Source of the DNA: Candidatus Saccharimonadota bacterium
GTDB taxonomy: Bacteria > Patescibacteriota > Saccharimonadia > Saccharimonadales > JACDBH01
Length of the DNA stretch: 64,000 bases
Assembly: GCA_028289135.1 (NCBI GenBank)
Contig: JAQGGW010000005.1
Span: 139,219 to 203,218, forward strand
Reading direction: 5' to 3'
Within the stretch, counting starts at the first letter, position 1; every line of letters begins with the position of its first letter. Positions 3,013 through 44,094 of this stretch are shown here, in pieces. The notes under the pieces are model-generated. The model made no database searches, was not told the origin of the DNA, and worked only from the letters and a program-made list of their open reading frames with translations. The position numbers and the translations under genes were made by a program.

Positions 3013-3731
3013 GCAAGCAAAATTTACACATAGTGCATTTGTACCCCAAAGAAATGAATATATATGGTGATACTGGCAATACGTTGATTTTGCGACGGCG
3101 AGCTGAATGGCGCGATATTGATGTCCGGGTTAGTTTGGTAGGGATTGGCGACGAGGTTCCGCACGACGCCGACATAATCTTGGGAGGTGGCGGCCAGGAT
3201 GCTGGTCAGGATAAAGTACAGGCCGATTTGCAGGAAAAAGCTGATGCTTTGCATAAACTTGCATTTGATGGCACGGTGATGCTGATGATTTGCGGCATGT
3301 ACCAGCTGTTTGGCAGGGCTTTTAAGACTGGCAGCGGCAACGTCATAAAAGGGATTAGTATTTTGCCGCTAGAAACCACCGCGGGGCTGGAGCGCTTTAT
3401 TGGCAACACGGTGTACCAAACCGAATTTGGCGAAACTGTCGCATACGAAAACCATAGCGGCGTCACGTCGCTGGACGACAAGTCGCTTGCTCTTGGCAGG
3501 GTTGTCCAAGGGGCGGGCAACAATGGCCTCGATAAAACCGAAGGCTGCAGGATAAAAAACGTCTTTGGAACTTATTCTCACGGGCCGCTACTCAGCAAAA
3601 ATCCAGTGTTGGCAGACTTGTTACTTGAAATTGCCCTGAAGCGTAAATACGGTGAATCCGCAATGCTTGCGCTGTTGGACGACAGTTTGGAGCAAGAAGC
3701 CTACAAATTTGCCAAACAGCGCCCGCGATAG
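3009..3731 (+). CDS. gatD: lipid II isoglutaminyl synthase, glutamine amidotransferase subunit GatD
   Basis: 240 aa CobQ-type GATase. ICGMYQLFG (Cys nucleophile) and GTYSHGP. ATGA overlap with murT. Confidence 0.85.
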   Translation: MSKQNLHIVHLYPKEMNIYGDTGNTLILRRRAEWRDIDVRVSLVGIGDEVPHDADIILGGGGQDAGQDKVQADLQEKADALHKLAFDGTVMLMICGMYQLFGRAFKTGSGNVIKGISILPLETTAGLERFIGNTVYQTEFGETVAYENHSGVTSLDDKSLALGRVVQGAGNNGLDKTEGCRIKNVFGTYSHGPLLSKNPVLADLLLEIALKRKYGESAMLALLDDSLEQEAYKFAKQRPR

Positions 3732-3753
3732 TCATATATACTGTTTAGTACTA

Positions 3754-3918: not shown

Positions 3919-5955
3919 ATGGAACTAACAGGGGGTCTGACTGGTTTAAAAGGCGTGGGGCCAAGCGTTGCGGCGCTTTTTAAGGGCATTGGCATTTCGA
4001 CAATTGCCGAGCTGCTGGATTACTTTCCGCGTACGTATAATGACTATTCCGAAATCCAGACGATTTCGAAGATCAAACCCGGGATGGTTACCGTTGAGGT
4101 CGAGATTAAACAGTCCACAGGGCGCTATGTCCGCCGCGGCATGCATATCACCGAAGCAGTTGCTTCGGACGCTACAGGCAGCGTGCGTTTGCTGTGGTTT
4201 AACCAGCCCTATAGAGCCGCAAGCATTAAAACAGGCCAAAAATACTTTGTTACCGGCAAGCTGGAGCTTAAGGCCCAGCGCTTTAGTATTACAAACCCAA
4301 GTATGGAACAATCAAGCGATTTTCCGCTTCACACGGCACGCATTGTTCCGGTTTATCGTGAAAGCAAGGGCATAACTTCAACACTTCTGCGGCGGGTTTT
4401 ATACCAAGTGATCAAGTCCGCTTATCTATTGCCCGAACCTTTGCCAGAAGAAATCCGACGTAAATATAAATTGTTAACTTACGGCGCTGCAATTAGCGAA
4501 CTGCATTTTCCAACTTCGCGCGAAAGCTTTGCGGCTGCACGGCGGACGATTGGTTTTATAGAAGTTTTTGAGCTGATGCTGGCGGCATCATTAAACAAAG
4601 CCCAGAACCAAAGCGAACCGGCTCCATCAATCCCTTTTAAAGAAAAACTGGCCCAGAAGTTTGTAAAGTCTTTGCCGTTTACCTTAACCAACGCCCAAAG
4701 AGTTGCCGCATGGCAGATTTACCAAGATATTGTCTTCCCGGTACCTATGAACAGGCTTTTGGAAGGCGATGTTGGCTCCGGCAAAACCGTGGTGGCGGGG
4801 ATGGCCGGTCTAATGGCTATGGAGGCCGGATACCAAGTTGCATTAATGGCGCCGACTGAACTTTTGGCGCGGCAGCATGCCGAAACTTTAACCGATTTGT
4901 TTAAGGCGACTGGGCATGATGAGGTCGTGAGCCTACTTGTCGGAAGTTTAAAACCGGCCCAAAAGAAGATAGCCCAGGAACGCATTGCTAGCGGGCATAT
5001 CAAGTTTATTGTTGGAACGCAGGCTTTGCTGCAAGAAAAAGTTGTCATGCAAAACTTGGGGCTGTTGATTGTGGACGAACAGCACCGTTTTGGCGTTGAC
5101 CAGCGTAAAAAGTTGCTAAAAAGTTCGGGGTATATGCCGCATGTGCTCAGCATGACGGCCACCCCAATTCCGCGCTCTTTAGCATTGACGCTGTACGGTG
5201 AGCTGGATATTTCGCTTTTGGATGTTATGCCTATGGGCCGCAAGCCGATTATTACCGAAATTGTATCGCCGAACAGCCGAGAACCGCTTTATAAAAAAAT
5301 CGACGACGAAATTACGCAGGGACGTCAGGTTTACATAGTCTGCCCAGTCATTAAGGAAGGTTCTGGCCTAAAAGCGCCAAGCGCCGAGCAAACATATGAA
5401 AAATTGCGTAAAACCACCTTTAAACATCGCCAGCTGAGGCTTTTGCATGGCAAAATGAAAGACGATGAAAAATCCGCTGTTATGGAAGAGTTCGCAGCCG
5501 GGAAAATAGACATCTTGGTGGCAACAACCGTAATTGAAGTTGGTATCAGCGTCGCTAATGCCAGCGTGATGGTCATAGAGGGCGCTGACAGGTTCGGTCT
5601 TGCCCAAATGCACCAGCTCCGCGGCCGTGTGGGACGGAGTACCGATCAGGGCTACTGTTTTATTGTGCCAAGTGATAGCAAAGCCCCCAGCCCTAGGTTG
5701 CGGGCACTGAGCCAGTCTACAGATGGATTTAAGTTGGCAGAACTTGATCTAGAGCTACGCGGACCAGGAGCTATTTATGGCACGCTGCAGCACGGTGAGC
5801 TTGACCTGCGGATAGCCAAGCTCAGCGATGCCAAACTGCTGGCCGAAAGCCGCAAAGCGGTAAATGACTTTATTAAGGCAAAAATTAAATTGAGCGATTA
5901 CCCCGAACTAAAACGTCGTGTGCGTGCCGCCCAAGCCGTCGTTACCCTGAATTAG
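3910..5955 (+). CDS. recG: ATP-dependent DNA helicase RecG
   Basis: 681 aa. Walker A GDVGSGKT, DEQHRFG, TATPIPR, QLRGRVGR. SD GAAAGG 6 nt upstream. Confidence 0.93.
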   Translation: MGSMELTGGLTGLKGVGPSVAALFKGIGISTIAELLDYFPRTYNDYSEIQTISKIKPGMVTVEVEIKQSTGRYVRRGMHITEAVASDATGSVRLLWFNQPYRAASIKTGQKYFVTGKLELKAQRFSITNPSMEQSSDFPLHTARIVPVYRESKGITSTLLRRVLYQVIKSAYLLPEPLPEEIRRKYKLLTYGAAISELHFPTSRESFAAARRTIGFIEVFELMLAASLNKAQNQSEPAPSIPFKEKLAQKFVKSLPFTLTNAQRVAAWQIYQDIVFPVPMNRLLEGDVGSGKTVVAGMAGLMAMEAGYQVALMAPTELLARQHAETLTDLFKATGHDEVVSLLVGSLKPAQKKIAQERIASGHIKFIVGTQALLQEKVVMQNLGLLIVDEQHRFGVDQRKKLLKSSGYMPHVLSMTATPIPRSLALTLYGELDISLLDVMPMGRKPIITEIVSPNSREPLYKKIDDEITQGRQVYIVCPVIKEGSGLKAPSAEQTYEKLRKTTFKHRQLRLLHGKMKDDEKSAVMEEFAAGKIDILVATTVIEVGISVANASVMVIEGADRFGLAQMHQLRGRVGRSTDQGYCFIVPSDSKAPSPRLRALSQSTDGFKLAELDLELRGPGAIYGTLQHGELDLRIAKLSDAKLLAESRKAVNDFIKAKIKLSDYPELKRRVRAAQAVVTLN

Positions 5956-28602: not shown

Positions 28603-28824
28603 ATGGGTGAAAGATTTGCCACTGATTTCGATATTGAAACTGGAGTTAACCGTAAAGAAACACCTATTATACAACCTGTAACTGATGGATTATTTGATCA
28701 AGCTGCATACGTTGAGGCTCTTGAACAAGGTAAAGCTCCAATAACAGCACGTCGTGCTGGTATCAATGCAGGGAGTGTCACAATGGCAGCGATTGTGACA
28801 GTAGAAGGAGTTCAAAATGCCTAG
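28603..28824 (+). CDS. hypothetical acidic micro-protein (73 aa) inserted between rpsL and rpsG
   Basis: ATG 2 nt after the rpsL stop. Its last codons contain the rpsG SD (GAAGGAG), and its TAG lies inside rpsG codons 2-3 (ATGCCTAG). AGA/TTA/ATA codons. Confidence 0.5.
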   Translation: MGERFATDFDIETGVNRKETPIIQPVTDGLFDQAAYVEALEQGKAPITARRAGINAGSVTMAAIVTVEGVQNA

Positions 28825-29293
28825 GAAAGTTACCAAAGCCCTCGTCCGCGAGGCCGCACCAGACCGCAAATACGGCAACCAACAGGTTACCCGTGTTATC
28901 AACCGCGTTATGATCGATGGCAAAAAGCAAACCGCCGAACGCCTTGTATACGAAGGTATGGAAATTGCAGCTAAAAAGCTTAAAGTAGAGAGCCCACTAG
29001 AAGTTTTCGAAAAAGCTCTTGGCAACATCCGCCCACATCTTGAAACCCGTTCCCGCCGTGTTGGTGGTGCAAACTACCAGATCCCATTTGAAGTTAAAGG
29101 CCAGCGCCAAAACCACCTTATGACTATGTGGTTTGTAAACGCAGCCCGCGCCCGCAAAGGCATTGGCATGTCAGATCGTATTGCTATGGAACTCGTTGAC
29201 GCCTTTAACGGCACCGGCACCGCTGTCAAAAAGCGTGAAGACGCACACAAGATGGCCGAATCTAACCGCGCCTTCGCTCACTTCGCTCGCTAA
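28817..29293 (+). CDS. rpsG: 30S ribosomal protein S7
   Basis: 158 aa, MPRKVTKA...; conserved S7 blocks (RRVGGANYQIP). Confidence 0.96.
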   Translation: MPRKVTKALVREAAPDRKYGNQQVTRVINRVMIDGKKQTAERLVYEGMEIAAKKLKVESPLEVFEKALGNIRPHLETRSRRVGGANYQIPFEVKGQRQNHLMTMWFVNAARARKGIGMSDRIAMELVDAFNGTGTAVKKREDAHKMAESNRAFAHFAR

Positions 29294-29297
29294 CAAA

Positions 29298-29777
29298 ATG
29301 AGTAGACAAAGCCGAGGTCGTTTTGACTGGCAAAGCGAAAGATCTCATATTGCAGCCAGAAAACCGGCAGCACCACGATGGGGCGTCGTAACTAGTGGAG
29401 AAACATTGCCCGAAGCAAAGATAGTGCTGAGCCGGCCGTTATACGCCAAGGCAAGTGGATGTATGGGGTGTTTGGCAATAGATTCTTGCATACAAAGAGC
29501 AAGAGAAGCTTTTGATTCGATAGCAGCTCGCGGCGATATTATATTCGAAGATGTTGAGCAGAATAAAAAAGTGATTGTCGACCCTAAAAAAGTATCGGAA
29601 GATTTAGCTCAAATGATCGGTGGCTTTAATGATGCAAAAGAACAATATACTCAGCTTGCACAAGTTTGTAGAGATTCGGACACGGGCAAAATAGATCTTT
29701 ACGATGAGGGTGCCGTAGTTGGTTATATTTGCGGTGCTACTCAAGAAGAGTATAAGATAACACCAACAGAGAGTTAA
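29298..29777 (+). CDS. hypothetical protein (159 aa, ORFan; CxxC-containing)
   Basis: ATG 4 nt after the rpsG stop (internal start of ORF 29163..29777). GCMGCLAIDSC cluster. Followed by an intrinsic terminator. Confidence 0.5.
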   Translation: MSRQSRGRFDWQSERSHIAARKPAAPRWGVVTSGETLPEAKIVLSRPLYAKASGCMGCLAIDSCIQRAREAFDSIAARGDIIFEDVEQNKKVIVDPKKVSEDLAQMIGGFNDAKEQYTQLAQVCRDSDTGKIDLYDEGAVVGYICGATQEEYKITPTES

Positions 29778-29779
29778 AT

Positions 29780-29806
29780 ACAGGTAGGGAACTGCCTGTT
29801 ATTTTT
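29780..29806 (+). terminator. intrinsic terminator inside the str region
   Basis: 8-bp stem ACAGGTAG/CTGCCTGT (one G-U) with GGAA tetraloop, then TATTTTTATT. Confidence 0.65.
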
Positions 29807-29936
29807 ATTAATAGCAATTCTCCAGATTGTATGTGATAATATTGGCAAGTTCGTTATTTCTAAAGGTTTACTTTTTAGGATGCGATAGGTGGTGGAAGAC
29901 TATTAAGTTCGATACTTTTTTTGAAAGGATTTCACA

Positions 29937-30389
29937 ATGCCCGGTTACACAGAAAAGGGGCCAAGCTCAATGTCATCAGGCAATCAAGTTCAGTCAGTTT
30001 TGCCCATGAACATTGAAAAATGGAACCTAACTATTTCGAATCATATTGGACATCCCTCTAATGATGGCTACCCCGCGCTTGGAGTGCAGGGTGAGATTGT
30101 TTGGTTTGACTATACAGGTATGCAAATACCTCCTCTTTATAACCCTTATACTACTCAAGCCTCTGCACCCACAACAGCTAACAGGCTTTCACGCCGTGTT
30201 GAATCTAGTTCGTCCCGAGTAACGGCACTAGACTTAAGCCCACAACAAATTTGTGAGCAAGCGTGTTCGAGCAACCGAAGAAGTGGTTATCGTTGCGACG
30301 GCGCACAACTTGACAAGGACTTTGGAGATTTTAAGTGTTCAGTCACGGGTGATTATGAATCTTTGCCGGTAAGTTTAAGATTTAGGTAA
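29937..30389 (+). CDS. hypothetical protein (150 aa, ORFan)
   Basis: SD AAAGGA 8 nt upstream. First of three ORFs separated by 1 nt each. Confidence 0.5.
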   Translation: MPGYTEKGPSSMSSGNQVQSVLPMNIEKWNLTISNHIGHPSNDGYPALGVQGEIVWFDYTGMQIPPLYNPYTTQASAPTTANRLSRRVESSSSRVTALDLSPQQICEQACSSNRRSGYRCDGAQLDKDFGDFKCSVTGDYESLPVSLRFR

Positions 30390-30390
30390 T

Positions 30391-30879
30391 ATGGTAGATC
30401 CTGAAATTACCGGAGCTGTAGAGCCTTGGCAGGAATCTGCTGACCGCGATTATCCTGGATATGATGGTGGTTTCGTAGGCCATGAAGCTATAAAAAATTA
30501 TTATAACGCGTTAGCTTTGGACATCGTGACAGCAAATATCAAAAACTATTTTCAGGTAACTGGCAGTTATGCTGAAGCTAACGGAGTGGTCACTCACGAA
30601 GATTTAGCAGCAGGCTATGCGGCTCTGATTGTTTCTATCGCTGAAAGTGCTGCCCTGAGCGCACAAGCGGAAGATACTAAAAATGGTGGTAATGCGCGTT
30701 TGCGCCTTATGATTGATATGAAGCAAGATTTAATAGATGCTGAAGCAAAGAAGAAGGCAGCAGCGGCCAAAGCGGACGAACTAAAAGAAGCAATACGAAG
30801 GATTAATGAAGACAGCATATTGCGACAAGCCGCAGTCATAACAGCGAGCCGTGCCGAAATAGTGGAGGTAACAGAATAA
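30391..30879 (+). CDS. hypothetical protein (162 aa, ORFan; Ala/Lys-rich helical C-terminus)
   Basis: Starts 1 nt after the previous stop. DAEAKKKAAAAKADELKEAIRR segment. Confidence 0.5.
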   Translation: MVDPEITGAVEPWQESADRDYPGYDGGFVGHEAIKNYYNALALDIVTANIKNYFQVTGSYAEANGVVTHEDLAAGYAALIVSIAESAALSAQAEDTKNGGNARLRLMIDMKQDLIDAEAKKKAAAAKADELKEAIRRINEDSILRQAAVITASRAEIVEVTE

Positions 30880-30880
30880 T

Positions 30881-31255
30881 ATGGCAGGCCAAGAAACATC
30901 TATTAGAGCTGGAGAGGAATCAGCAGCTGAACAACCGCGATACGCTCGAGTTTTATCTGAAGTTGAAAGAATCCAAGGAGAAGAGGCTAAGCGTATCATA
31001 AGTCTTTCAAAACTTGCTTGGGTATTTGAATTAACACAAAAGCAAGTAAATTTGCATTCTCATTTAGAGGTTGCCGCCGAACGGCTAGCTAGAGGTATCG
31101 CTTCAATTCCAGTATTACCTGAGATATTGGCAGTATTCCAAGAAAATTACACGACTCCGCTTGTTGATGTTCTTGGAGCTGATAGATTCGCCACCATAGT
31201 TGCAGAATGTTCAGATCAAACTAACATTGTTCAATCACAGCCTGAGCTTGCGTAA
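30881..31255 (+). CDS. hypothetical protein (124 aa, ORFan)
   Basis: Starts 1 nt after the previous stop. Its 3' end overlaps the -35 of the fusA promoter. Confidence 0.5.
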   Translation: MAGQETSIRAGEESAAEQPRYARVLSEVERIQGEEAKRIISLSKLAWVFELTQKQVNLHSHLEVAAERLARGIASIPVLPEILAVFQENYTTPLVDVLGADRFATIVAECSDQTNIVQSQPELA

Positions 31256-31364: not shown

Positions 31365-33455
31365 ATGGCAGACGCAAAGAAAACACCAATGAAAGACATC
31401 CGCAACTTGGGCATTATCGCCCACATTGACGCGGGTAAAACCACTACCACCGAAGGTATTTTGTACCGCACTGGCATCAGCCACAAGATTGGCGCCGTGC
31501 ACGAAGGCGAAACCACTACCGACTGGATGGCTCAGGAGCGTGAGCGCGGTATTACCATCGTTGCTGCCTCTGTTACGTGTTTTTGGAAGGGTAATCAGAT
31601 TAACATTATCGATACTCCTGGTCACATTGACTTTACGGTTGAAGTCGAACGTTCACTCCGTGTGCTTGACGGCGCCTGCGTTGTGTTCGACGGCAAGATG
31701 GGTGTCGAAAGCCAGTCCGAAACTGTTTGGCGCCAGGCCGACAAATACGGCGTGCCTCGTATCTGTTTTATCAACAAAATCAACCAAACCGGTGGCGATT
31801 TCTACAAGAGCCTCGAATCAATTCATAACCGTTTGAGCAAGCGTGCTTTCCCAGTCCACATTCCAATTGGCTTTGAACAGAGCATCAACGGTCTTGTTGA
31901 CCTAGTTGAAATGAAGGCCTATACCTACACCGAATTCCACGACAAAGAATTAGTTGAAGCGCCAATTCCAGAAGACATGATGGATCAGGTTAAAAAAGCC
32001 CGCAGCCTGCTGGTTGAAAACGCCGTTGCCGAAGACGAAGCAATTCTTGAAAAATACTTTGAAGTTGGCGAAGAAGGTCTTAGCGTTGCTGAAATCAAGC
32101 AGGCGATCCGTACCGCAGTATTGTCTGGCAAGTTCTTTGCCGTTACCGGCGGCGATGGCCGTGGTGTTATCGTTGAAAAAGTTTTGGACATGGTGAATGA
32201 CTACCTCCCAAGCCCGCTGGACAAGGGTTCAACTTGGGGCACGCATCCAAAAACTGGTGACGAAGAAGAGCGCAAGCCATCCGAAGCTGAGCCGTTTTCA
32301 GCACTTGCGTTCAAGATTACTACCGACCCATTTGTTGGTAAGCTGGCATACTTCCGCGTTTATTCCGGAACTGTTACCGCTGGTTCATACATTTTAAACA
32401 GCTCAAACGGTGAAAAAGAGCGCGTTGGCCGTATTGTCCGCCTCCAGGCCGACAAACGTGCTGACGTTACCGAAGTGGGTGCTGGTGACATTGCCGCAAT
32501 CGTCGGCCTAAAGGCTACAACTACTGGCCATACCCTTTGTGACCCTGCGCACCCAATTGTGCTTGAAAGCATCGAATTCCCAGAACCACCTGTTTCTATC
32601 GCCATCGAACCAAAGACCAAGTCTGACCAAGAAAAAATGGGCATTGCTATGCAGCGCCTTGCCGAAGAAGATCCAACATTTAGAATCCGTGTCGACGACG
32701 AAACCGGCCAAACGGTTATCTCTGGAATGGGTGAGCTTCACCTCGAAATCCTGGTTGACCGCATGAAGCGCGAATTTGATGTTGAAGCCAACATTGGCGC
32801 GCCGCAGGTTGCCTACCGCGAAACTGTCCGCAAAGCAGGCGTTGAAGCCCAAGGTAAGTTTATCCGCCAATCTGGTGGACGTGGCCAATACGGTGACGCG
32901 TGGCTCAGAATTTCTCCAAACGAACAAGGCAAGGGCTTTGAGTTCAAAAACTCCATCAAGGGTGGTGTTATACCTGGTGAATACATCAAGCCAGTTGAAG
33001 CTGGTGTTGTTGAAGCCATGAGCACCGGTACCGTCGCTGGTTACCCAGTTGTTGATGTTATTGTTGAGCTGTTTGACGGTTCTTACCACGAAGTTGACTC
33101 CAACGAAATGGCCTTCAAAATCGCCGGCTCAATGGGCTTCCAGGCCGCAATGAAAGCCGCTGGACCAGTTTTGCTCGAACCTGTCATGAAAGTCGTTGTT
33201 GTAACTCCTGAAGAGTTCATGGGTGACGTCATCGGCGACCTAAACTCCAAGCGCGCACGCATTGAATCCATGGAAGACCTAAGCTCCGGCATCAAAGAAA
33301 TTACTGCTTTTGTTCCTCTTGGCGAAATGTTTGGCTACACAACCGCGCTACGTTCTTCTACCAAAGGCCGCGCAAGCAGCTCAATGGAGCTTGACCACTA
33401 CGCTGACGTTCCAAACCACGTTGCCGAAGCAATTGCATCTAAACGAGCAAAATAA
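31365..33455 (+). CDS. fusA: elongation factor G
   Basis: 696 aa. G1 AHIDAGKTT, DTPGHIDF; full five-domain length. Confidence 0.97.
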   Translation: MADAKKTPMKDIRNLGIIAHIDAGKTTTTEGILYRTGISHKIGAVHEGETTTDWMAQERERGITIVAASVTCFWKGNQINIIDTPGHIDFTVEVERSLRVLDGACVVFDGKMGVESQSETVWRQADKYGVPRICFINKINQTGGDFYKSLESIHNRLSKRAFPVHIPIGFEQSINGLVDLVEMKAYTYTEFHDKELVEAPIPEDMMDQVKKARSLLVENAVAEDEAILEKYFEVGEEGLSVAEIKQAIRTAVLSGKFFAVTGGDGRGVIVEKVLDMVNDYLPSPLDKGSTWGTHPKTGDEEERKPSEAEPFSALAFKITTDPFVGKLAYFRVYSGTVTAGSYILNSSNGEKERVGRIVRLQADKRADVTEVGAGDIAAIVGLKATTTGHTLCDPAHPIVLESIEFPEPPVSIAIEPKTKSDQEKMGIAMQRLAEEDPTFRIRVDDETGQTVISGMGELHLEILVDRMKREFDVEANIGAPQVAYRETVRKAGVEAQGKFIRQSGGRGQYGDAWLRISPNEQGKGFEFKNSIKGGVIPGEYIKPVEAGVVEAMSTGTVAGYPVVDVIVELFDGSYHEVDSNEMAFKIAGSMGFQAAMKAAGPVLLEPVMKVVVVTPEEFMGDVIGDLNSKRARIESMEDLSSGIKEITAFVPLGEMFGYTTALRSSTKGRASSSMELDHYADVPNHVAEAIASKRAK

Positions 33456-33634
33456 TGTCTCCTAAAACTCCCGAATATATTAATCCTGCCGAAGCACCTG
33501 TTGACCTTGTTCGCGATAGTGAAACACGATCAACTCTTTATGTAGTCGGCGGCGCAATTTTATTTGCAGCAGTTGCTGCTGGTGCAGTAATGATCGGTGC
33601 GCCAAAGAAATTGTTCAGATTCGAAAGTGACTGA
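33455..33634 (+). CDS. hypothetical single-pass membrane micro-protein (59 aa)
   Basis: Below the ORF-track cutoff. Its ATG overlaps the fusA TAA (TAATG). MSPKTPEYINPAE...LYVVGGAILFAAVAAGAVMIGAPKK has one clear hydrophobic helix. Confidence 0.45.
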   Translation: MSPKTPEYINPAEAPVDLVRDSETRSTLYVVGGAILFAAVAAGAVMIGAPKKLFRFESD

Positions 33635-33664
33635 TAATTAATAACTGGGTGGCGGAGAATTGAC

Positions 33665-34264
33665 ATGCCTACTCATCCCGAACTTGTAGCACAAACACTT
33701 TTGACACTTGAGGCACATCGCCAGGCTCCCCATATAATTGATGATGCCTATGAAGATGGCATTATTGATGATGCTCATCATCTAGTAATTACTTCTAAAG
33801 GCAACTCGCAAACTGCAGTAGTGACACCGATGTATAGGGGCTTCGTGTATGGTTCAAGCCTGCTCGAACGATTTGATATGGCGGCATTATGTAATCGAGT
33901 TTTTGTCGAGGCGCGTATTAAAGTGGCTTCAAATGATCGTAAACAACTTGAAACAGCCAACGTAACGCTTAGATATGCTTTTGCACCAAAATTCCTACAA
34001 CCAAATAAGGTTCTAGAAACCCAGGCTCGCTACCCATTAGATCCAGAGGCCGAATATGGCACTATGGAAAGAGTTATTGCTGCAATTGGCGAAGTAGGTG
34101 TTGAAGGGGCAACAGTTCCAAATACTAGTGGTTATGTAGAGGTACCTGATGACCCGTACAGAAAAAATAACGACCGCTGGGTTGTAACTGATCACATGAG
34201 CGGTTTAGTAGTTGCTGAATGTATCCATGAAGCAGTGAGCCGGTTGCATTTTACGGAGCTTTAA
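33665..34264 (+). CDS. hypothetical protein (199 aa, ORFan)
   Basis: SD GGAG ~8 nt upstream. No recognisable motif. Sits between fusA and tuf. Confidence 0.5.
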   Translation: MPTHPELVAQTLLTLEAHRQAPHIIDDAYEDGIIDDAHHLVITSKGNSQTAVVTPMYRGFVYGSSLLERFDMAALCNRVFVEARIKVASNDRKQLETANVTLRYAFAPKFLQPNKVLETQARYPLDPEAEYGTMERVIAAIGEVGVEGATVPNTSGYVEVPDDPYRKNNDRWVVTDHMSGLVVAECIHEAVSRLHFTEL

Positions 34265-35718: not shown

Positions 35719-35870
35719 GGCTCAACTACGCTTCTATGCACGGCAAGAAACGAAAAACTGCATCCAAATGCATCGGCCAGTGACATGTTTGAATTGTTCC
35801 AGGAAATGAGATTTTGTTATTTTAGTCAAAACTATGCTAAAGTAGGTTTAATTAAATGAGGTTAATTGAG

Positions 35871-36215
35871 ATGGCGGAATTTTGTCCTGGATGCGATAGA
35901 GCGGGAATGGTTGTAGGTGATGTAGCTATAAGTATAAAAAAAGACGAACTTAGAAGTCCTTTAACAGATCTAGCTATAACTTTTACAGACGAAGATGGTT
36001 TTTTGCAACGCGGTTTTTTTGGTAGAGTTGTAGACCAAGAAGCAGACCTGGATACCAGCCTACTTGGCGAACGTCTTCTCAGCCGTATAGATCGCTGTAA
36101 AAGCCCAATGAGAAATGGTACATGCCCAGCCTTTAATCATGAGGTGGTTGAACAGTTAATACGATCTCAAGTAAGCCAGGAAGCAATAACTGAGCCTGAC
36201 CAGCCAGGAATTTAG
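35871..36215 (+). CDS. hypothetical protein with two Cys pairs (possible zinc-ribbon-like)
   Basis: MAEFCPGCDRAG...RCKSPMRNGTCPAF. ATG 35871 has GAGG 9 nt upstream; ATG 35856 is also possible. Confidence 0.45.
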   Translation: MAEFCPGCDRAGMVVGDVAISIKKDELRSPLTDLAITFTDEDGFLQRGFFGRVVDQEADLDTSLLGERLLSRIDRCKSPMRNGTCPAFNHEVVEQLIRSQVSQEAITEPDQPGI

Positions 36216-36295
36216 AAAAGCAAAAATACCATCGTGTAAAGAAGCTCACTGACTTATCTAGATAGACATTCATAATAAGTATCTTAGGAGTGCTT

Positions 36296-36628
36296 ATGTC
36301 TGTAGAGTTTAAGGGGCCTGTTATACCTGTTAGAATTGATGGCGAAAATGCTTCGCTACGTATTGTGCGTGATATGTCGTATAACATCGAAGCCGCCAGC
36401 GTGCTGTCTAACCCCGATGCAAATCCACCTTATGTCCAGCTAACACTGATATCTCCTCCAGGACCGCATTATAAAGAAGTTTGTGCAGATAAAATTACAG
36501 GTGATCCTGAGCCAAACCGTGCTCGCCTTATGTTTAACGAGCCATTTGGCGTTGATAAACTTATAGCTAACGCAATGAAAAGAGTAAGCAAGTCCAGGCA
36601 CCCAGCAGGAAGAGGAAATGCGAATTAA
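36296..36628 (+). CDS. hypothetical protein (110 aa, ORFan)
   Basis: SD GGAG 5 nt upstream of ATG 36296. No recognisable motif. Confidence 0.5.
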   Translation: MSVEFKGPVIPVRIDGENASLRIVRDMSYNIEAASVLSNPDANPPYVQLTLISPPGPHYKEVCADKITGDPEPNRARLMFNEPFGVDKLIANAMKRVSKSRHPAGRGNAN

Positions 36629-36687
36629 TTAAATTGCTTGACAGTAGGAATATAATTAAAGCATAAGTATTAATAAGGAACACAAAA

Positions 36688-36918
36688 ATGAAAAATGGAT
36701 TTGAGGATTCGGTAGCTCCAGTAGCTTATGGAGCTGATTTCGCTGGGCGAGTTGCTGTTGCAAGAGTTAATATGGATCAAGTATTAGAAACTCATCCTAA
36801 ACCAGATGTAAGATCTGTTGCAGCTCATGCGGGCAAAGTAATATTTCGAGAAATTGTATTTGCAGGTGCATGGTTAAACGCTGAAATTCATGGCGTAGAT
36901 CTTAGCCAAGTTGGTTAG
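36688..36918 (+). CDS. hypothetical protein (76 aa, ORFan)
   Basis: SD AAGGAA 8 nt upstream. No recognisable motif. Confidence 0.45.
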   Translation: MKNGFEDSVAPVAYGADFAGRVAVARVNMDQVLETHPKPDVRSVAAHAGKVIFREIVFAGAWLNAEIHGVDLSQVG

Positions 36919-40756: not shown

Positions 40757-41374
40757 ATGAAAGCACTTATTACTCGAAAGGTCGGCATGACAAGCCTAGT
40801 ATCTGATACTGGTGTTGTTACTGCTGTTACCTTGCTTTCCGCTAGTCCTTGCGTCATTACGCAAGTGAAGACCATTGATACTGATGGGTATCAAGCGGTC
40901 CAAATTGGCACAGAAGTTGCCAAGAACGCCAGCAAGCCGGCTCAAGGCCACGCTACCAAAGCTGGTGTAGCACCATCAAAAATTACACGCGAAATCCGCG
41001 TGGACGAAATCACAGAAGAATTAACCGTCGGCACCGAACTCAAGGCCGACGTTTTTAGTGTCGGTGATTCCGTCCAAGTTACTGGGACAAGCAAGGGTAA
41101 AGGCTTTGCCGGAACCATCAAGCGCCACAATTTTAAGCGCCAGCGCAAAACCCACGGTGGTAAGGGTGATACCCGCAAGCCAGGCTCAATTGGCTCAATG
41201 TACCCACAGCGTATTTTTAAGGGCAAGCGTATGGCTGGCCGCATGGGCGGTGACCAAGTTACTGTTCGCGGTCTCAAGATTGAACTTGTTGACACAGAGC
41301 TAAACGTTATCGCTGTCAGCGGAGCCGTTCCTGGCCCGCGTAAAAGCATTGTGCTACTGAAAGGAACCAACTAA
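40757..41374 (+). CDS. rplC: 50S ribosomal protein L3
   Basis: 205 aa, MKALITRKVGMTS...; conserved L3 blocks. Confidence 0.96.
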   Translation: MKALITRKVGMTSLVSDTGVVTAVTLLSASPCVITQVKTIDTDGYQAVQIGTEVAKNASKPAQGHATKAGVAPSKITREIRVDEITEELTVGTELKADVFSVGDSVQVTGTSKGKGFAGTIKRHNFKRQRKTHGGKGDTRKPGSIGSMYPQRIFKGKRMAGRMGGDQVTVRGLKIELVDTELNVIAVSGAVPGPRKSIVLLKGTN

Positions 41375-42042
41375 TGAGCGTCCCTACTTATACCAAGGCC
41401 GGCGTTAAAGCTACGACCGCCGCAAAGCTTCCAAAAGGCATTTTTGACCTTGAAGTAACTTCCCACGAACTTTTAAAGCAGGCTTACACCGCTTATATGT
41501 CCAACAGCCGCACCGTAAATGCTCACACGCTCAAGCGCGGTGAAGTATCTGGTGGTGGCCGCAAACCATGGAAGCAAAAGGGAACTGGCCGCGCACGTTT
41601 TGGTTCGATCCGCGTTCCAATTTGGCGTGGCGGTGGTATTACTTTTGGTCCAACTGGCAACGAAAACTTTACCAAAGAACTTCCAGTTAAGACCAAGCGC
41701 CAGGCTATCCGCCAGGCACTCAGCGTCAAGAACGACGTTATCTCTGTTATCGACGAAATTGATTTCAAAGACGGCAAAGTTGCACCAGTTGCAGCACTTC
41801 TAAGCAAACTTGGCGCTACCAAGAAAGTATTGATTGTTGTTGACGCTAAGGACGAAATGTCAGTCCGCGCAACCCGCAACCTGGCTGACGTTAAGGTTAC
41901 CCAAGCCCGCTACCTAAATGTGTATGACCTGCTTAATGCCGACTCAGTCATCATTACTGCAAAATCACTCGACATCATTGCTGAATGGCTTGCTCCAACT
42001 TCTGCTGCCGCAACTGGCAAAACAGCTAAGGAGACCAAATAA
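41374..42042 (+). CDS. rplD: 50S ribosomal protein L4
   Basis: 222 aa. GGGRKPWKQKGTGRAR motif. TAATG overlap with rplC. Confidence 0.96.
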   Translation: MSVPTYTKAGVKATTAAKLPKGIFDLEVTSHELLKQAYTAYMSNSRTVNAHTLKRGEVSGGGRKPWKQKGTGRARFGSIRVPIWRGGGITFGPTGNENFTKELPVKTKRQAIRQALSVKNDVISVIDEIDFKDGKVAPVAALLSKLGATKKVLIVVDAKDEMSVRATRNLADVKVTQARYLNVYDLLNADSVIITAKSLDIIAEWLAPTSAAATGKTAKETK

Positions 42043-42422
42043 TGAAAGATCTCATGTTAATTCCTAGAATCTCCGAAAAGGCATATGCCATGAGCCAGCG
42101 CGACAACATTAAGACCTATGTCTTTGAAGTCCCAACCGGTTCAAACAAGCATTCTGTTGCCCGCGCCGTGACCATGCAGTTTGACGTTGTTGTTACCAGT
42201 GTCCGCACAACTACTGCTAAGGGCAAGGTTAAGCAAAGTTACCGCAAGGGCGGCCGCCCAATTACCGGAACCCGCAGCGATGTTAAAAAGGCATATGTAA
42301 CACTCCGTGAAGGCGATGTTTTGCCATTATTCATAGAAGAGCAGCAAGAAGAAGAAAAGCAGCTTAAGGCTGACCAAAAAGCTGCTAAAGAAGCCAAAAA
42401 GGCTAAGAAGGAGACCAAGTAA
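42042..42422 (+). CDS. rplW: 50S ribosomal protein L23 (Lys/Glu-rich C-terminal extension)
   Basis: 126 aa. L23 core plus tail EEQQEEEKQLKADQKAAKEAKKAKKETK. Confidence 0.93.
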   Translation: MKDLMLIPRISEKAYAMSQRDNIKTYVFEVPTGSNKHSVARAVTMQFDVVVTSVRTTTAKGKVKQSYRKGGRPITGTRSDVKKAYVTLREGDVLPLFIEEQQEEEKQLKADQKAAKEAKKAKKETK

Positions 42423-42679
42423 TGGCTATTCATAACCAAGACCCTTTTGTCTTACATATTGACGATGTTCTTGCACATAATTCTATCGCAACTGGCATAA
42501 AAGACGCTACGGGATTAGATACGGTTTTTGTACCAGCAAATCCTAGCAATACACCTAAAGAAAATGCTATGTTTGCTGGAAAAGCTGCTCTAGCTAGTTC
42601 AATTAATAATGGTGGTTTAGTAAGAGCTGCAGAAGCTATTATTGAAGAACGTGGTGGTTTATTTGGGGAGGCAATCTAA
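42422..42679 (+). CDS. hypothetical acidic micro-protein (85 aa) inserted between rplW and rplB
   Basis: TAATG overlaps at both ends. Its first 10 nt (ATGGCTATTC) are identical to the first 10 nt of rplB. Carries the rplB SD (GGGGAGG). TTA/AGA/ATA codons. Confidence 0.5.
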   Translation: MAIHNQDPFVLHIDDVLAHNSIATGIKDATGLDTVFVPANPSNTPKENAMFAGKAALASSINNGGLVRAAEAIIEERGGLFGEAI

Positions 42680-43533
42680 TGGCTATTCGCGCTTATAAGC
42701 CTACAACTCCTGGCCAACGTGGCATGACCACCCAGGACTTCGATACAATCACGACTAAGAAGCCTCTTAAGAGCTTGATAGTTGTAAAAAAGAAACAGTC
42801 AGGACGAAATAACCAGGGCCGTATTACAACCCGCCACCAAGGTGGTGGTGTCCGCCAGTTCTACCGTTTGGTAAACTTTAACCTTCCTGCCGGCACCAAA
42901 GCTACCGTTGAAGAGATTGAATACGATCCAAACCGCAGCGCCCGTATTGCCCGCATAAAAGACCAGGACAACAAGTACCACTATATCTTAGCCGGCACCG
43001 GAATTGTCCAGGGCCGCGTTATCCAGGCTGGCGAAGACGCTCCTGTTGAAGCTGGCAACCGTTTGCCAATCAAGAACATCCCAGTTGGTTCAACTATTTA
43101 TGCTATCGAAATCCAAGTTGGTAAGGGTGCCCAAATGGTGCGTTCTGCCGGTAACAATGCCCAGCTAATGGCTAAAGAGGGTGAATACGCCCAAGTCCGT
43201 TTGCCATCTGGCGAAATCCGTTTGATCAATGTTGATTGTATGGCTAGCTTGGGTACCGTTGGTAACGAACAGCACCAGAACATCAAGATTGGTAAAGCTG
43301 GACGCAACCGCAAGAAGGGCATCCGCCCATCTGTACGTGGTGTTGTTATGAACGCTGTTGATCACCCGCACGGTGGTGGTGACGGTGGTCGGCACGGTGT
43401 TGGTGGTGGTAAAAACCATGGTTCTGCTCCGCGCACTCCATGGGGTATTAAGACACTTGGCTACAAGACCCGTAAGCGTAAGTCTACAAGTAAGATGATC
43501 GTAAAGAGCCGTCACGCGGCGAAGAGGAAATAA
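42679..43533 (+). CDS. rplB: 50S ribosomal protein L2
   Basis: 284 aa, MAIRAYKPTTPGQRG...; VMNAVDHPHGGG motif. Confidence 0.97.
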   Translation: MAIRAYKPTTPGQRGMTTQDFDTITTKKPLKSLIVVKKKQSGRNNQGRITTRHQGGGVRQFYRLVNFNLPAGTKATVEEIEYDPNRSARIARIKDQDNKYHYILAGTGIVQGRVIQAGEDAPVEAGNRLPIKNIPVGSTIYAIEIQVGKGAQMVRSAGNNAQLMAKEGEYAQVRLPSGEIRLINVDCMASLGTVGNEQHQNIKIGKAGRNRKKGIRPSVRGVVMNAVDHPHGGGDGGRHGVGGGKNHGSAPRTPWGIKTLGYKTRKRKSTSKMIVKSRHAAKRK

Positions 43534-43535
43534 CC

Positions 43536-43832
43536 ATGATGTTCCCTAATACTTTAGTAGAAAAAGAAATGAACAGATTTACAGAAAGAGTTGTATCGTA
43601 CGCTAATGGATCTGATCCAAGAACTCGTGATGGTATGCTTTCTGTTGTTGCTGAGGAAATTGCTATAAGTGCTGTTGACAGTCCTTTGGCCCATCCAATA
43701 GCGTGGAAAAAAGATGCCTACGATGCTATCGGTGGTTATAACCGAATAGCGGCACCGGTTATTGAGAACGCTGTTGACTTTGTATTAAAAGAAATTGGAA
43801 GAACAGCAAGCTTAGGAGGCCGATATGTCTAG
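43536..43832 (+). CDS. hypothetical micro-protein (98 aa) inserted between rplB and rpsS
   Basis: ATG 2 nt after the rplB stop. Its 3' end supplies AGGAGG for rpsS, and its TAG lies within rpsS codons 2-3 (ATGTCTAG). Several AGA codons. Confidence 0.5.
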
Positions 43833-44094
43833 ATCATTAAAGAAAGGTCCGTTTATCGATCCAAAGCTTGCAAAGAAAATTGCAGCTTTGTCTAATGACG
43901 ACCGTACCATCATCAAAACTTGGGCACGCAGCAGTACAATCTCACCAGATTTTGTTGGCCGCACCTTGGCTGTACACAACGGCAAAGTCCACGTTCCAGT
44001 GTTTGTAACCGAAAACATGGTTGGCCACAAGCTTGGTGAATTTAGTCCAACACGTAAGTTCCGCTCACACGGCGGTAAGATGGCGAAGGGTTAA
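43825..44094 (+). CDS. rpsS: 30S ribosomal protein S19
   Basis: 89 aa, [15 protein letters not shown]... Confidence 0.96.

Follow-up and report, generated by a model that had tools for sequence, protein, structure and literature searches.

An orphan open reading frame at a duplicated rplW/rplB junction in a ribosomal operon of Candidatus Saccharibacteria

The rplW/rplB junction and orf85

The S10 operon is one of the most conserved gene arrangements of bacteria, and its L23/L2 junction is normally a 1-nt overlap. The window analysed here, the whole 64-kb stretch taken from contig JAQGGW010000005.1, belongs to a metagenome-assembled genome of Candidatus Saccharibacteria and carries the str/S10/spc ribosomal gene cluster. 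In this window the genes of L23 (rplW) and L2 (rplB) are separated by an 85-codon open reading frame (ORF), named orf85 here, at both ends of which the same 12 nt of the junction are found. The parts of the locus, with positions in the window, are the following; handles with three digits, such as L002, denote loci of other genomes and not ribosomal proteins.

42042-42422, forward strand: rplW (L23), Pfam Ribosomal_L23, E = 6.9e-21
42410-42413, forward strand: native Shine-Dalgarno sequence (SD) GGAG within the 3' end of rplW, formerly for rplB and now for orf85
42420-42431, forward strand: left copy of the 12-nt repeat TAATGGCTATTC, comprising the L23 stop and the original rplB start with its first three codons, now the start of orf85
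42422-42679, forward strand: orf85, an 85-codon bridging ORF between rplW and rplB with an acidic product (pI 4.8)
42432-42688, forward strand: the inserted 257 nt, i.e., 245 unique nt plus one repeat copy, the exact register inside the repeat being ambiguous
42665-42671, forward strand: new SD of rplB (GGGGAGG), derived from the 3' end of the insert and placed at the native spacing, 7 nt before the second ATG
42677-42688, forward strand: right copy of the 12-nt repeat TAATGGCTATTC, comprising the orf85 stop and the functional rplB start
42679-43533, forward strand: intact rplB (L2), Pfam L2 N- and C-terminal domains, 96% amino acid (aa) identity to L002

The first-pass annotation of this DNA had reported the 12-nt direct duplication, and our analysis reproduced it: TAATGGCTATTC is present at both positions, 257 nt apart, and has no other exact copy in the window, where 4 matches with at most one mismatch were found as compared to 0.45 expected from shuffles. 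The other junction details of that annotation were also recovered, namely the N-terminus MAI that the translation of orf85 shares with L2, the insert-derived SD by which rplB is re-supplied, and the TAATG stop/start overlaps on both sides of orf85. A repeat search extended the duplication upstream to an imperfect 22-mer (GGAGACCAAGTAATGGCTATTC versus GGAGGCAATCTAATGGCTATTC, 82% identical), in which GGAG is equally distant from both ATGs. GGAG-N6-TAATGGCT is a common junction design in the operon, and 12 nt of the L24/L5 junction agree in register with the L23/orf85 junction (AAGTAATGGCTA). Because the operon junctions share this one design, the L2-specific part of the repeat is only about 4-7 nt, for which we estimate p at roughly 1e-3, a value that is not astronomically small. 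Since the stop of L23 and the start of L2 overlap in TAATG, an insertion is viable only if TAA and ATG are present again on either side of it, and this requirement by itself accounts for five of the 12 repeated bases; the other seven (GCTATTC) are the footprint of the event. An insert placed just past the L2 ATG takes over the native SD and the coupling to L23, and to be viable it has to be open throughout and to supply L2 with an SD and a start. It is the empty site in relatives, and not the repeat statistics, that is the decisive evidence for an insertion.

The region around L2 was scanned at species level with one genome per species (80 Saccharibacteria loci), an insert being counted when at least 60 nt lay at a junction; tallies over all loci cover 54-89 loci depending on the junction, and closer relatives were recovered via L23 and L2 protein clusters and metagenome contigs. 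The empty site expected by the first-pass annotation (...AAGTAATGGCTATTCGCGC...; also written ...TAATGGCTATTCG...) is present in L002, L082 and L090. The junction reads AAAAGTAATGGCTATTCGCACC (in a longer reading ...CAAAAGTAATGGCTATTCGCACC) in L002, the closest species representative, ACTAAGTAATGGCTATTCGAGC in L082 and AAAAATAATGGCTATTCGCGCAT in L090, and those of L003, L091, L095 and L096 are likewise uninterrupted. At the junction, the empty sites of L002, L082 and L090 have the same sequence as the left repeat copy, and the alignment proposed with relatives lacking the insert shows a clean 257-nt gap opposite L002. The TAATG overlap of the L23 stop and L2 start was found in 62 of the 78 species representatives, and an L23-L2 insert in only two of them (five of all 89 loci). 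As the L2 start ATGGCTATTC is present in just 3 of 80 species, the left copy is the clade's own L2 start and not a generic one. Two patterns that would have spoken for a resident gene were looked for: an ORF present without the repeat in all relatives, and an rplB-like paralog. The ORF is absent from 84 of the 89 loci, and orf85 contains no L2-like sequence past MAI and no Pfam match, the L2 families failing to match even at E up to 1, and no nucleotide similarity to rplB beyond the 12-nt repeat. The insert was identical base for base in a separate (Logan) assembly of run SRR13312994 (L001), which argues against an assembly artefact.

The GC content of orf85 by codon position is 0.56/0.42/0.17 (chi-square p = 1e-6), while the third-position value (GC3) of the neighbouring ribosomal genes is 0.46-0.50 and the intergenic GC of the window is mostly 0.32-0.43. 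The orf85 frame is the sole one of six that is open across the insert, the other five having 2-10 internal stops. The codon-position profile of the insert is that of a genuine coding sequence and not of decayed or non-coding DNA, and, set against that of the resident genes, it points to an evolution in an AT-richer genome. Neither a promoter nor a terminator was detected in 42432-42676 by a consensus scan, no Rfam family matched the insert, and its RNA fold was not more stable than those of shuffles (z = -1.33).

In a word-indexed search of 5.8 billion clustered proteins, orf85 retrieved the identical protein only ('hypothetical protein JWO47_703 [Candidatus Saccharibacteria bacterium]'), and an exhaustive phmmer search of 1.8 billion representative proteins returned orf85 itself and one repeat protein, which was discounted. 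Searches of viral contigs, phages and plasmids with the insert and orf85, including tblastn and blastn, gave no match, and Pfam, PHROGs, PADLOC and NCBIfam held no family for orf85, for orf98 (an ORF between L2 and S19 described below) or for eight other small ORFs. Further copies of the 245-nt unique segment, which the first-pass annotation had proposed to seek genome-wide, were searched for by blastn and tblastx in the 64-kb window and about 100 related loci, and only the segment itself was found. The sole detectable relative of orf85 is a 103-codon ORF at the L23-L2 junction of a distant species (L061), with 35% identity over 37 aa, ungapped, a pairwise E of 2e-4, and a local score of 53 that was reached by 1 of 2000 shuffles (25.3 ± 4.6); this ORF has a coding-type periodicity too. 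A two-sequence profile search returned no homologue of orf85 beyond itself. By these comparisons orf85 is an orphan apart from its weak L061 relative. Most likely it encodes a real but dispensable small acidic accessory protein that is carried along by the expression of the ribosomal operon.

The discounted repeat protein (P0002) is a 1062-aa tandem-repeat protein, and its phmmer E of 7.9e-7 is summed over 10 repeats. With an HMM of its repeat unit, orf85 scored 16 bits against a shuffle maximum of 7.2, and the L061 relative scored -1.3. The match was treated as chance, since P0002 is a post hoc choice out of 1.8 billion proteins and the repeats inflate its score.

Inserts at the L23-L2 and other ribosomal junctions

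All five L23-L2 inserts among the 89 loci are ORFs that bridge the L23 stop to the L2 start. Those outside the window are the following.

L088/L089, nearest genome (about 90% nucleotide identity in ribosomal genes, two independent datasets): a 206-nt insert unrelated to orf85
L083, a more distant relative: a 54-codon ORF that starts ATGGCAATT (MAI, the L2 start)
L061, a distant species: the 103-codon ORF, with only TAATG repeated (5 nt)
L059, a distant species: a 36-codon ORF with an ATGA overlap with both neighbours

The L088 insert is without codon periodicity and folds significantly (z = -3.0); at its junction only ATGGCT is duplicated (6 nt), and L2 restarts after TAG-TT. In L083, L2 restarts as TAATGATCCGC (MIR) with one Ala codon lost, and the duplication is about 2-3 nt. 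In the window, in L088 and in L083, which are three independent cases, the left breakpoint is found 6-10 nt into L2. The last 60 nt of rplW are almost identical between the window and its sister genome L088, and 22-31% of the four-fold degenerate sites differ between the two, yet their inserts at both L23-L2 and L2-S19 are unrelated; at L23-L2, comparison of the inserts over their ends and overall gave no similarity above shuffles. Such inserts have been replaced or acquired independently and have not diverged in place. A recombination-tract check of the flanks of the window and L088 gave 0 to 17 differences per 60 nt throughout, with no interpretable junction pattern.

A 74-nt GC-rich element containing a hairpin (…TTGAGAGGGGATATTCCCCTCTCAA…) was found in the L23-L2 insert of L088 (3487-3560) and, 88% identical, in L055 (4698-4770), where it extends S17 in frame at the 3' end, immediately ahead of L14. 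It had no match in Rfam or among viral contigs, and it has the look of a small element, mobile or structured, that lands at ribosomal-operon junctions as well.

Inserts are by far most frequent between L2 and S19. The occupancy of the S10-operon junctions was as follows.

L3-L4: 2 of 84 loci
L4-L23: 4 of 86 loci
L23-L2: 5 of 89 loci
L2-S19: 30 of 88 loci
S19-L22: 3 of 85 loci
L22-S3: 4 of 85 loci
S3-L16: 8 of 81 loci
L16-L29: 1 of 72 loci
L29-S17: 2 of 70 loci
S17-L14: 0 of 72 loci
L14-L24: 0 of 54 loci

L2-S19 is thus a hot spot, the other junctions being occupied in 0-10% of loci. Its inserts are ORFs of 31-172 codons that are closely coupled to both neighbours; most of them start 1-5 nt past the L2 stop, and 24 of the 27 listed overlap the S19 start by 4 or 8 nt. 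The encoded products are nearly all acidic (median pI 4.9), and GC3 is usually below that of the host L2. By blastp and local HMM searches these ORFs are mutually unrelated, except for one five-member family with an MLxF..PP motif, which has 7 proteins in the whole database, and most are without any homologue. The first codons of six of 28 are ATGAGY, which is the ancestral start of S19 (several have ATGAGT), and in the window clade the occupied sites restart S19 as ATGTCTAGA and the empty sites read ATGAGTAGA. The L2-S19 ORF of L063 (3835-4029) begins with MAIRY, which is typical of the L2 N-terminus rather than of S19; this start would fit a cassette once at the L23-L2 junction and then moved.

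The window itself is occupied at L2-S19 and has a further ORF of this kind at the S12-S7 junction. The neighbouring genes and these ORFs are the following.

28603-28824, forward strand: 73-codon bridging ORF at the S12-S7 junction, GC1 (first codon position) 0.62 and GC3 0.19, starting 2 nt past the S12 stop and overlapping the S7 start (ATGCCTAG) by 8 nt
40757-41374: L3
41374-42042: L4
43536-43832, forward strand: orf98, a 98-codon bridging ORF between L2 and S19, GC3 0.27, starting 2 nt past the L2 stop and overlapping the S19 start by 8 nt
43825-44094: S19, followed by the usual gene order

The layout of the 73-codon ORF at S7 is the layout of orf98 at S19. orf98 is the sole member of its 90% cluster. 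Its site holds unrelated ORFs of 82-103 codons in L088 (4444-4746), L082 (about 3491-3743), L003 (3858-4106), L091 (3358-3642) and L095 (3358-3669), and none in L002 and L096; compared with the 100-aa ORF of L088, orf98 showed no similarity above shuffles. An L2-S19 cassette is stable inside a single strain, as seen from four identical contigs, each of which comes from another sample. L095, whose L2 is in the same 90% cluster as that of the window, also has a 41-codon ORF between L29 and S17 (5691-5816), which is absent from the window.

Orphan ORFs were also observed around the translation-factor genes of the window: 150, 162 and 124 codons between S7 and fusA (29937-31255), 59 and 199 codons between fusA and tuf (33455-34264), and 119, 112 and 76 codons between tuf and S10 (35856-36918). 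Their GC3 is 0.17-0.36, and they had no match in Pfam-type libraries. The start of the 124-codon ORF (ATATGGCAGGCC…AAGAAA) resembles that of fusA (ATATGGCAGACGCAAAGAAA), ranking 5th of 1953 start-region pairs, and the start of the 162-codon ORF is likewise similar to the fusA start; the likeness of these three suggests serial insertions at the start of fusA. The start region of the 150-codon ORF (aaggatttcacaATGCCCGG, 29925-29957) agrees with that of S7 (aaggagttcaaaATGCCTAGG, 28805-28837) in 15 of 17 bases to ATGCC, and 643 nt without a convincing ORF (29294-29936) lie between S7 and the 150-codon ORF. Between S10 and L3 (37451-40495) the window has a 3.3-kb block with a glycosyl-hydrolase-like gene, several small ORFs and one minus-strand gene. 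The median S10-L3 distance in other Saccharibacteria is about 0.7 kb, which indicates that the S10-L3 link is generally broken in the phylum and is especially expanded in the window.

Origin of the insert

We consider that orf85 probably goes back to one illegitimate event by which foreign coding DNA was inserted into the first codons of rplB, and that it is an orphan bridging gene filtered by selection. About 245 nt of foreign, AT-richer coding DNA would have entered rplB a few codons in, at the TAATG junction of the rplW stop and rplB start, and would have been joined by illegitimate, microhomology-type recombination and not by transposition, leaving the 12-nt junction sequence on both sides. 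The left copy lends the incoming frame the native SD, ATG and first three codons of rplB, and the 3' end of the insert brings its own GGAGG and a second TAATG from which rplB restarts. The resulting 85-codon ORF would depend on the operon promoter for its transcription and on coupling to L23 for its translation, and the junction anatomy suggests that L2 translation is in turn coupled to orf85 termination. Selection would retain only inserts whose reading frame spans the whole distance between the upstream stop and the downstream start, as any other insert would break the expression of essential downstream ribosomal proteins. The duplications of 12, 6, about 2-3 and 5 nt at one and the same site argue for illegitimate recombination plus selection, and not for a transposase with fixed stagger. 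The first-pass annotation had likened the locus to the footprint of an insertion or duplication similar to a target-site duplication (TSD); the insertion is borne out by the empty sites, and the likeness to a TSD holds in form only, as the insert has no terminal inverted repeats, no transposase and no second copy in the window or about 100 related loci.

Several points weigh against this account. The recombination mechanism is read from the anatomy of the junctions, and, because the sister L088 is also occupied at this rare site, the 12-nt duplication could date from an earlier event, after which the cassette was exchanged. The original duplication could also have been about 22 nt and have diverged since, which is conceivable because GGAG lies at identical spacing in both copies. 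No donor was found, and the case for a foreign origin is one of composition. Both the expression of orf85 and its protein are predicted from sequence, the AlphaFold2 model of the protein has a pLDDT of 50.6 and is too poor for a fold search, and orf85 is known as a single allele.

The main alternative is that the cassette came in ready-made from another Saccharibacterium in which an ORF already lay between L23 and L2, by homologous recombination in the conserved flanks rplW and rplB, the duplication being a legacy of an older event in the donor lineage; we see a small chance that this is what happened. It agrees with the finding of the only detectable orf85 relative at the same junction in the distant L061, and with the occupation of this rare site by unrelated sequences in the two closest genomes, the window and L088, as would be expected from cassette swapping; L2-S19 cassettes are wholly different even between genomes whose flanks are 82-92% identical. 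On the other hand, the flanks of the window look native, being almost identical to those of L088 without a patch of foreign divergence, and the left copy matches the clade's unusual L2 start, which restricts the donors to close relatives, for which a GC3 of 0.17 does not fit. A ready-made import also still needs an original insertion that duplicated the junction, and it moves the event without replacing its explanation.

A transposon origin, in which the 245-nt segment would be a non-autonomous element similar to a miniature inverted-repeat transposable element (MITE) and the repeat a true TSD left by a staggered transposase cut, is unlikely. A perfect 12-nt direct repeat does flank an insert missing from relatives, and the L088 insert at the same site shares the 74-nt structured element with a ribosomal junction of L055, so small mobile DNA does reach such junctions. 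But no terminal inverted repeats were found within 42380-42730, where the only inverted pairs were two weak internal ones, the better with 11-nt arms that are 82% complementary and the other of 8 nt; there is no second copy in the window or the roughly 100 related loci, no match in the phage, plasmid and viral collections, and no significant fold, and the codon periodicity is strongly gene-like. The variable duplication length also speaks against it, an argument that is suggestive only since the events may not concern one element family.

The view that orf85 is an ancestral S10-operon gene lost in most lineages, with MAI acquired by chance or by convergence on a start context that is favourable, is largely refuted, and we regard it as very improbable. 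It could appeal to the weak homologue at the same junction in L061 and to TAATGGCT being a common junction design in the operon, e.g., at L24/L5. However, 84 of the 89 loci are without any insert, and most have the 1-nt overlap, in which there is no remnant of a gene; the sister genome holds an unrelated sequence, GC3 is far below that of the resident genes and of intergenic DNA, and L083 and L088 independently show inserts that capture the L2 start codons. A further reading takes orf85 as a decayed N-terminal fragment of L2, left when the first 257 nt of rplB were duplicated in tandem and diverged. A duplication of this kind starting at TAATG would yield the same geometry, the first copy having 85 codons and ending at the second TAATG with its TAA, but this reading is refuted by the missing L2 similarity past the first 10 nt and by composition (GC3 0.17 versus 0.49), the neutral divergence of only about 25-30% between sisters being far too little to erase homology.

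Relation to known systems and significance

The closest parallel to the single illegitimate insertion proposed here is found among ORFan genes inserted into pre-existing operons, where they use the native promoter, e.g., sdhCDAB-b0725-sucABCD in Escherichia coli (Price, Arkin & Alm 2006, PMC1480536). Like those, orf85 is a short, AT-rich gene without homologues that lies beside native genes and is absent at the same position in sister taxa: in the two large protein collections nothing but orf85 itself and the discounted repeat protein was retrieved, and the operon is uninterrupted in L002, L082 and L090 and in 84 of 89 loci overall. Co-transcription of orf85 with the native genes is suggested by the same strand, the 1-nt overlaps and the fact that neither a promoter nor a terminator was detected in the insert. 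Unlike the published ORFans, orf85 has the core of the S10 operon as its target, with insertion inside the first codons of an essential gene, and its flanks show a duplicated stop/start junction at which coupling is preserved to either neighbour. The ORFans of that study lie mostly downstream of native genes, and such a junction anatomy is not described there (PMC1480536).

The insert can also be compared with other kinds of acquired DNA. It resembles insertion sequences (IS) and MITEs in that a short direct repeat of the target flanks the inserted DNA, and is distinguished from them by having no terminal inverted repeats or transposase, a single copy in the window and the related loci, a coding-type composition and no constant duplication length. 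Phage morons, reportedly described by Hendrix and colleagues in 2000, are extra genes inserted between conserved phage genes. As with morons, a gene of deviant composition lies between two conserved co-oriented genes in one genome and is absent in relatives; unlike morons, which carry their own promoter and terminator, the insert has neither and relies on operon transcription and coupling, and it is not in a prophage. Integron cassettes are also small promoterless ORFs at a fixed position behind an upstream promoter, drawn from a diverse and mostly orphan pool, and successive cassettes may stack here too, as the similar starts of the 162-codon ORF, the 124-codon ORF and fusA would indicate. 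In contrast to integron cassettes, there is no attC-like fold or 3' inverted repeat, and entry is at gene starts and not at attI; no integrase was seen beside the insert, where the neighbours are ribosomal protein genes, the window not having been screened for tyrosine recombinases.

Homology-facilitated illegitimate recombination is said to have been described in naturally transformable bacteria by de Vries and Wackernagel in 2002. The inserts would share with it the short and variable microhomologies at the junctions and the lack of a dedicated recombinase. That process is known from experiments and usually comes with a deletion in the recipient, whereas here the junction is duplicated and the mechanism is deduced from it. 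The integration of foreign DNA by microhomology-type illegitimate recombination is, as a concept, summarised in PMC3240628.

Our analysis identifies orf85 as a case of orphan-gene insertion into an operon, with the junction anatomy as the new element. It is one example of a wider and apparently undescribed habit of Saccharibacteria, in which many small orphan ORFs, specific to single strains, are placed at junctions of the ribosomal and translation-factor operons; no description of ORFs inserted in Saccharibacteria ribosomal operons was found in the open-access literature, which is absence of evidence only. As a speculation to which we give a low probability, the junctions of ribosomal and translation-factor genes may be acceptor sites for a pool of promoterless mini-genes, which would enter just past the ATG of an essential gene, capture its ribosome-binding site and first codons, provide a replacement start, be swapped or stacked, and encode small acidic proteins made in step with ribosomal proteins. 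Such a pool would fit the unrelated ORFs at 30 of 88 L2-S19 sites, the ATGAGY starts in 6 of 28 of them, the MAIRY start in L063 and the similar starts of the 162- and 124-codon ORFs and fusA.

The orf85 locus displays at base resolution the way in which a new gene can be accepted by an operon that is essential and tightly coupled, the insert reusing the start signals of the downstream gene and supplying new ones. As these operons serve as phylogenetic markers and as scaffolds for binning, such inserts matter for genome annotation, and they are relevant to the question of how orphan genes come to be expressed. The inserts may also point to highly expressed small proteins in an episymbiotic lineage, and if the junctions do act as acceptor sites, the products could be strain-specific ribosome-associated, host-interaction or anti-phage factors, not passengers.

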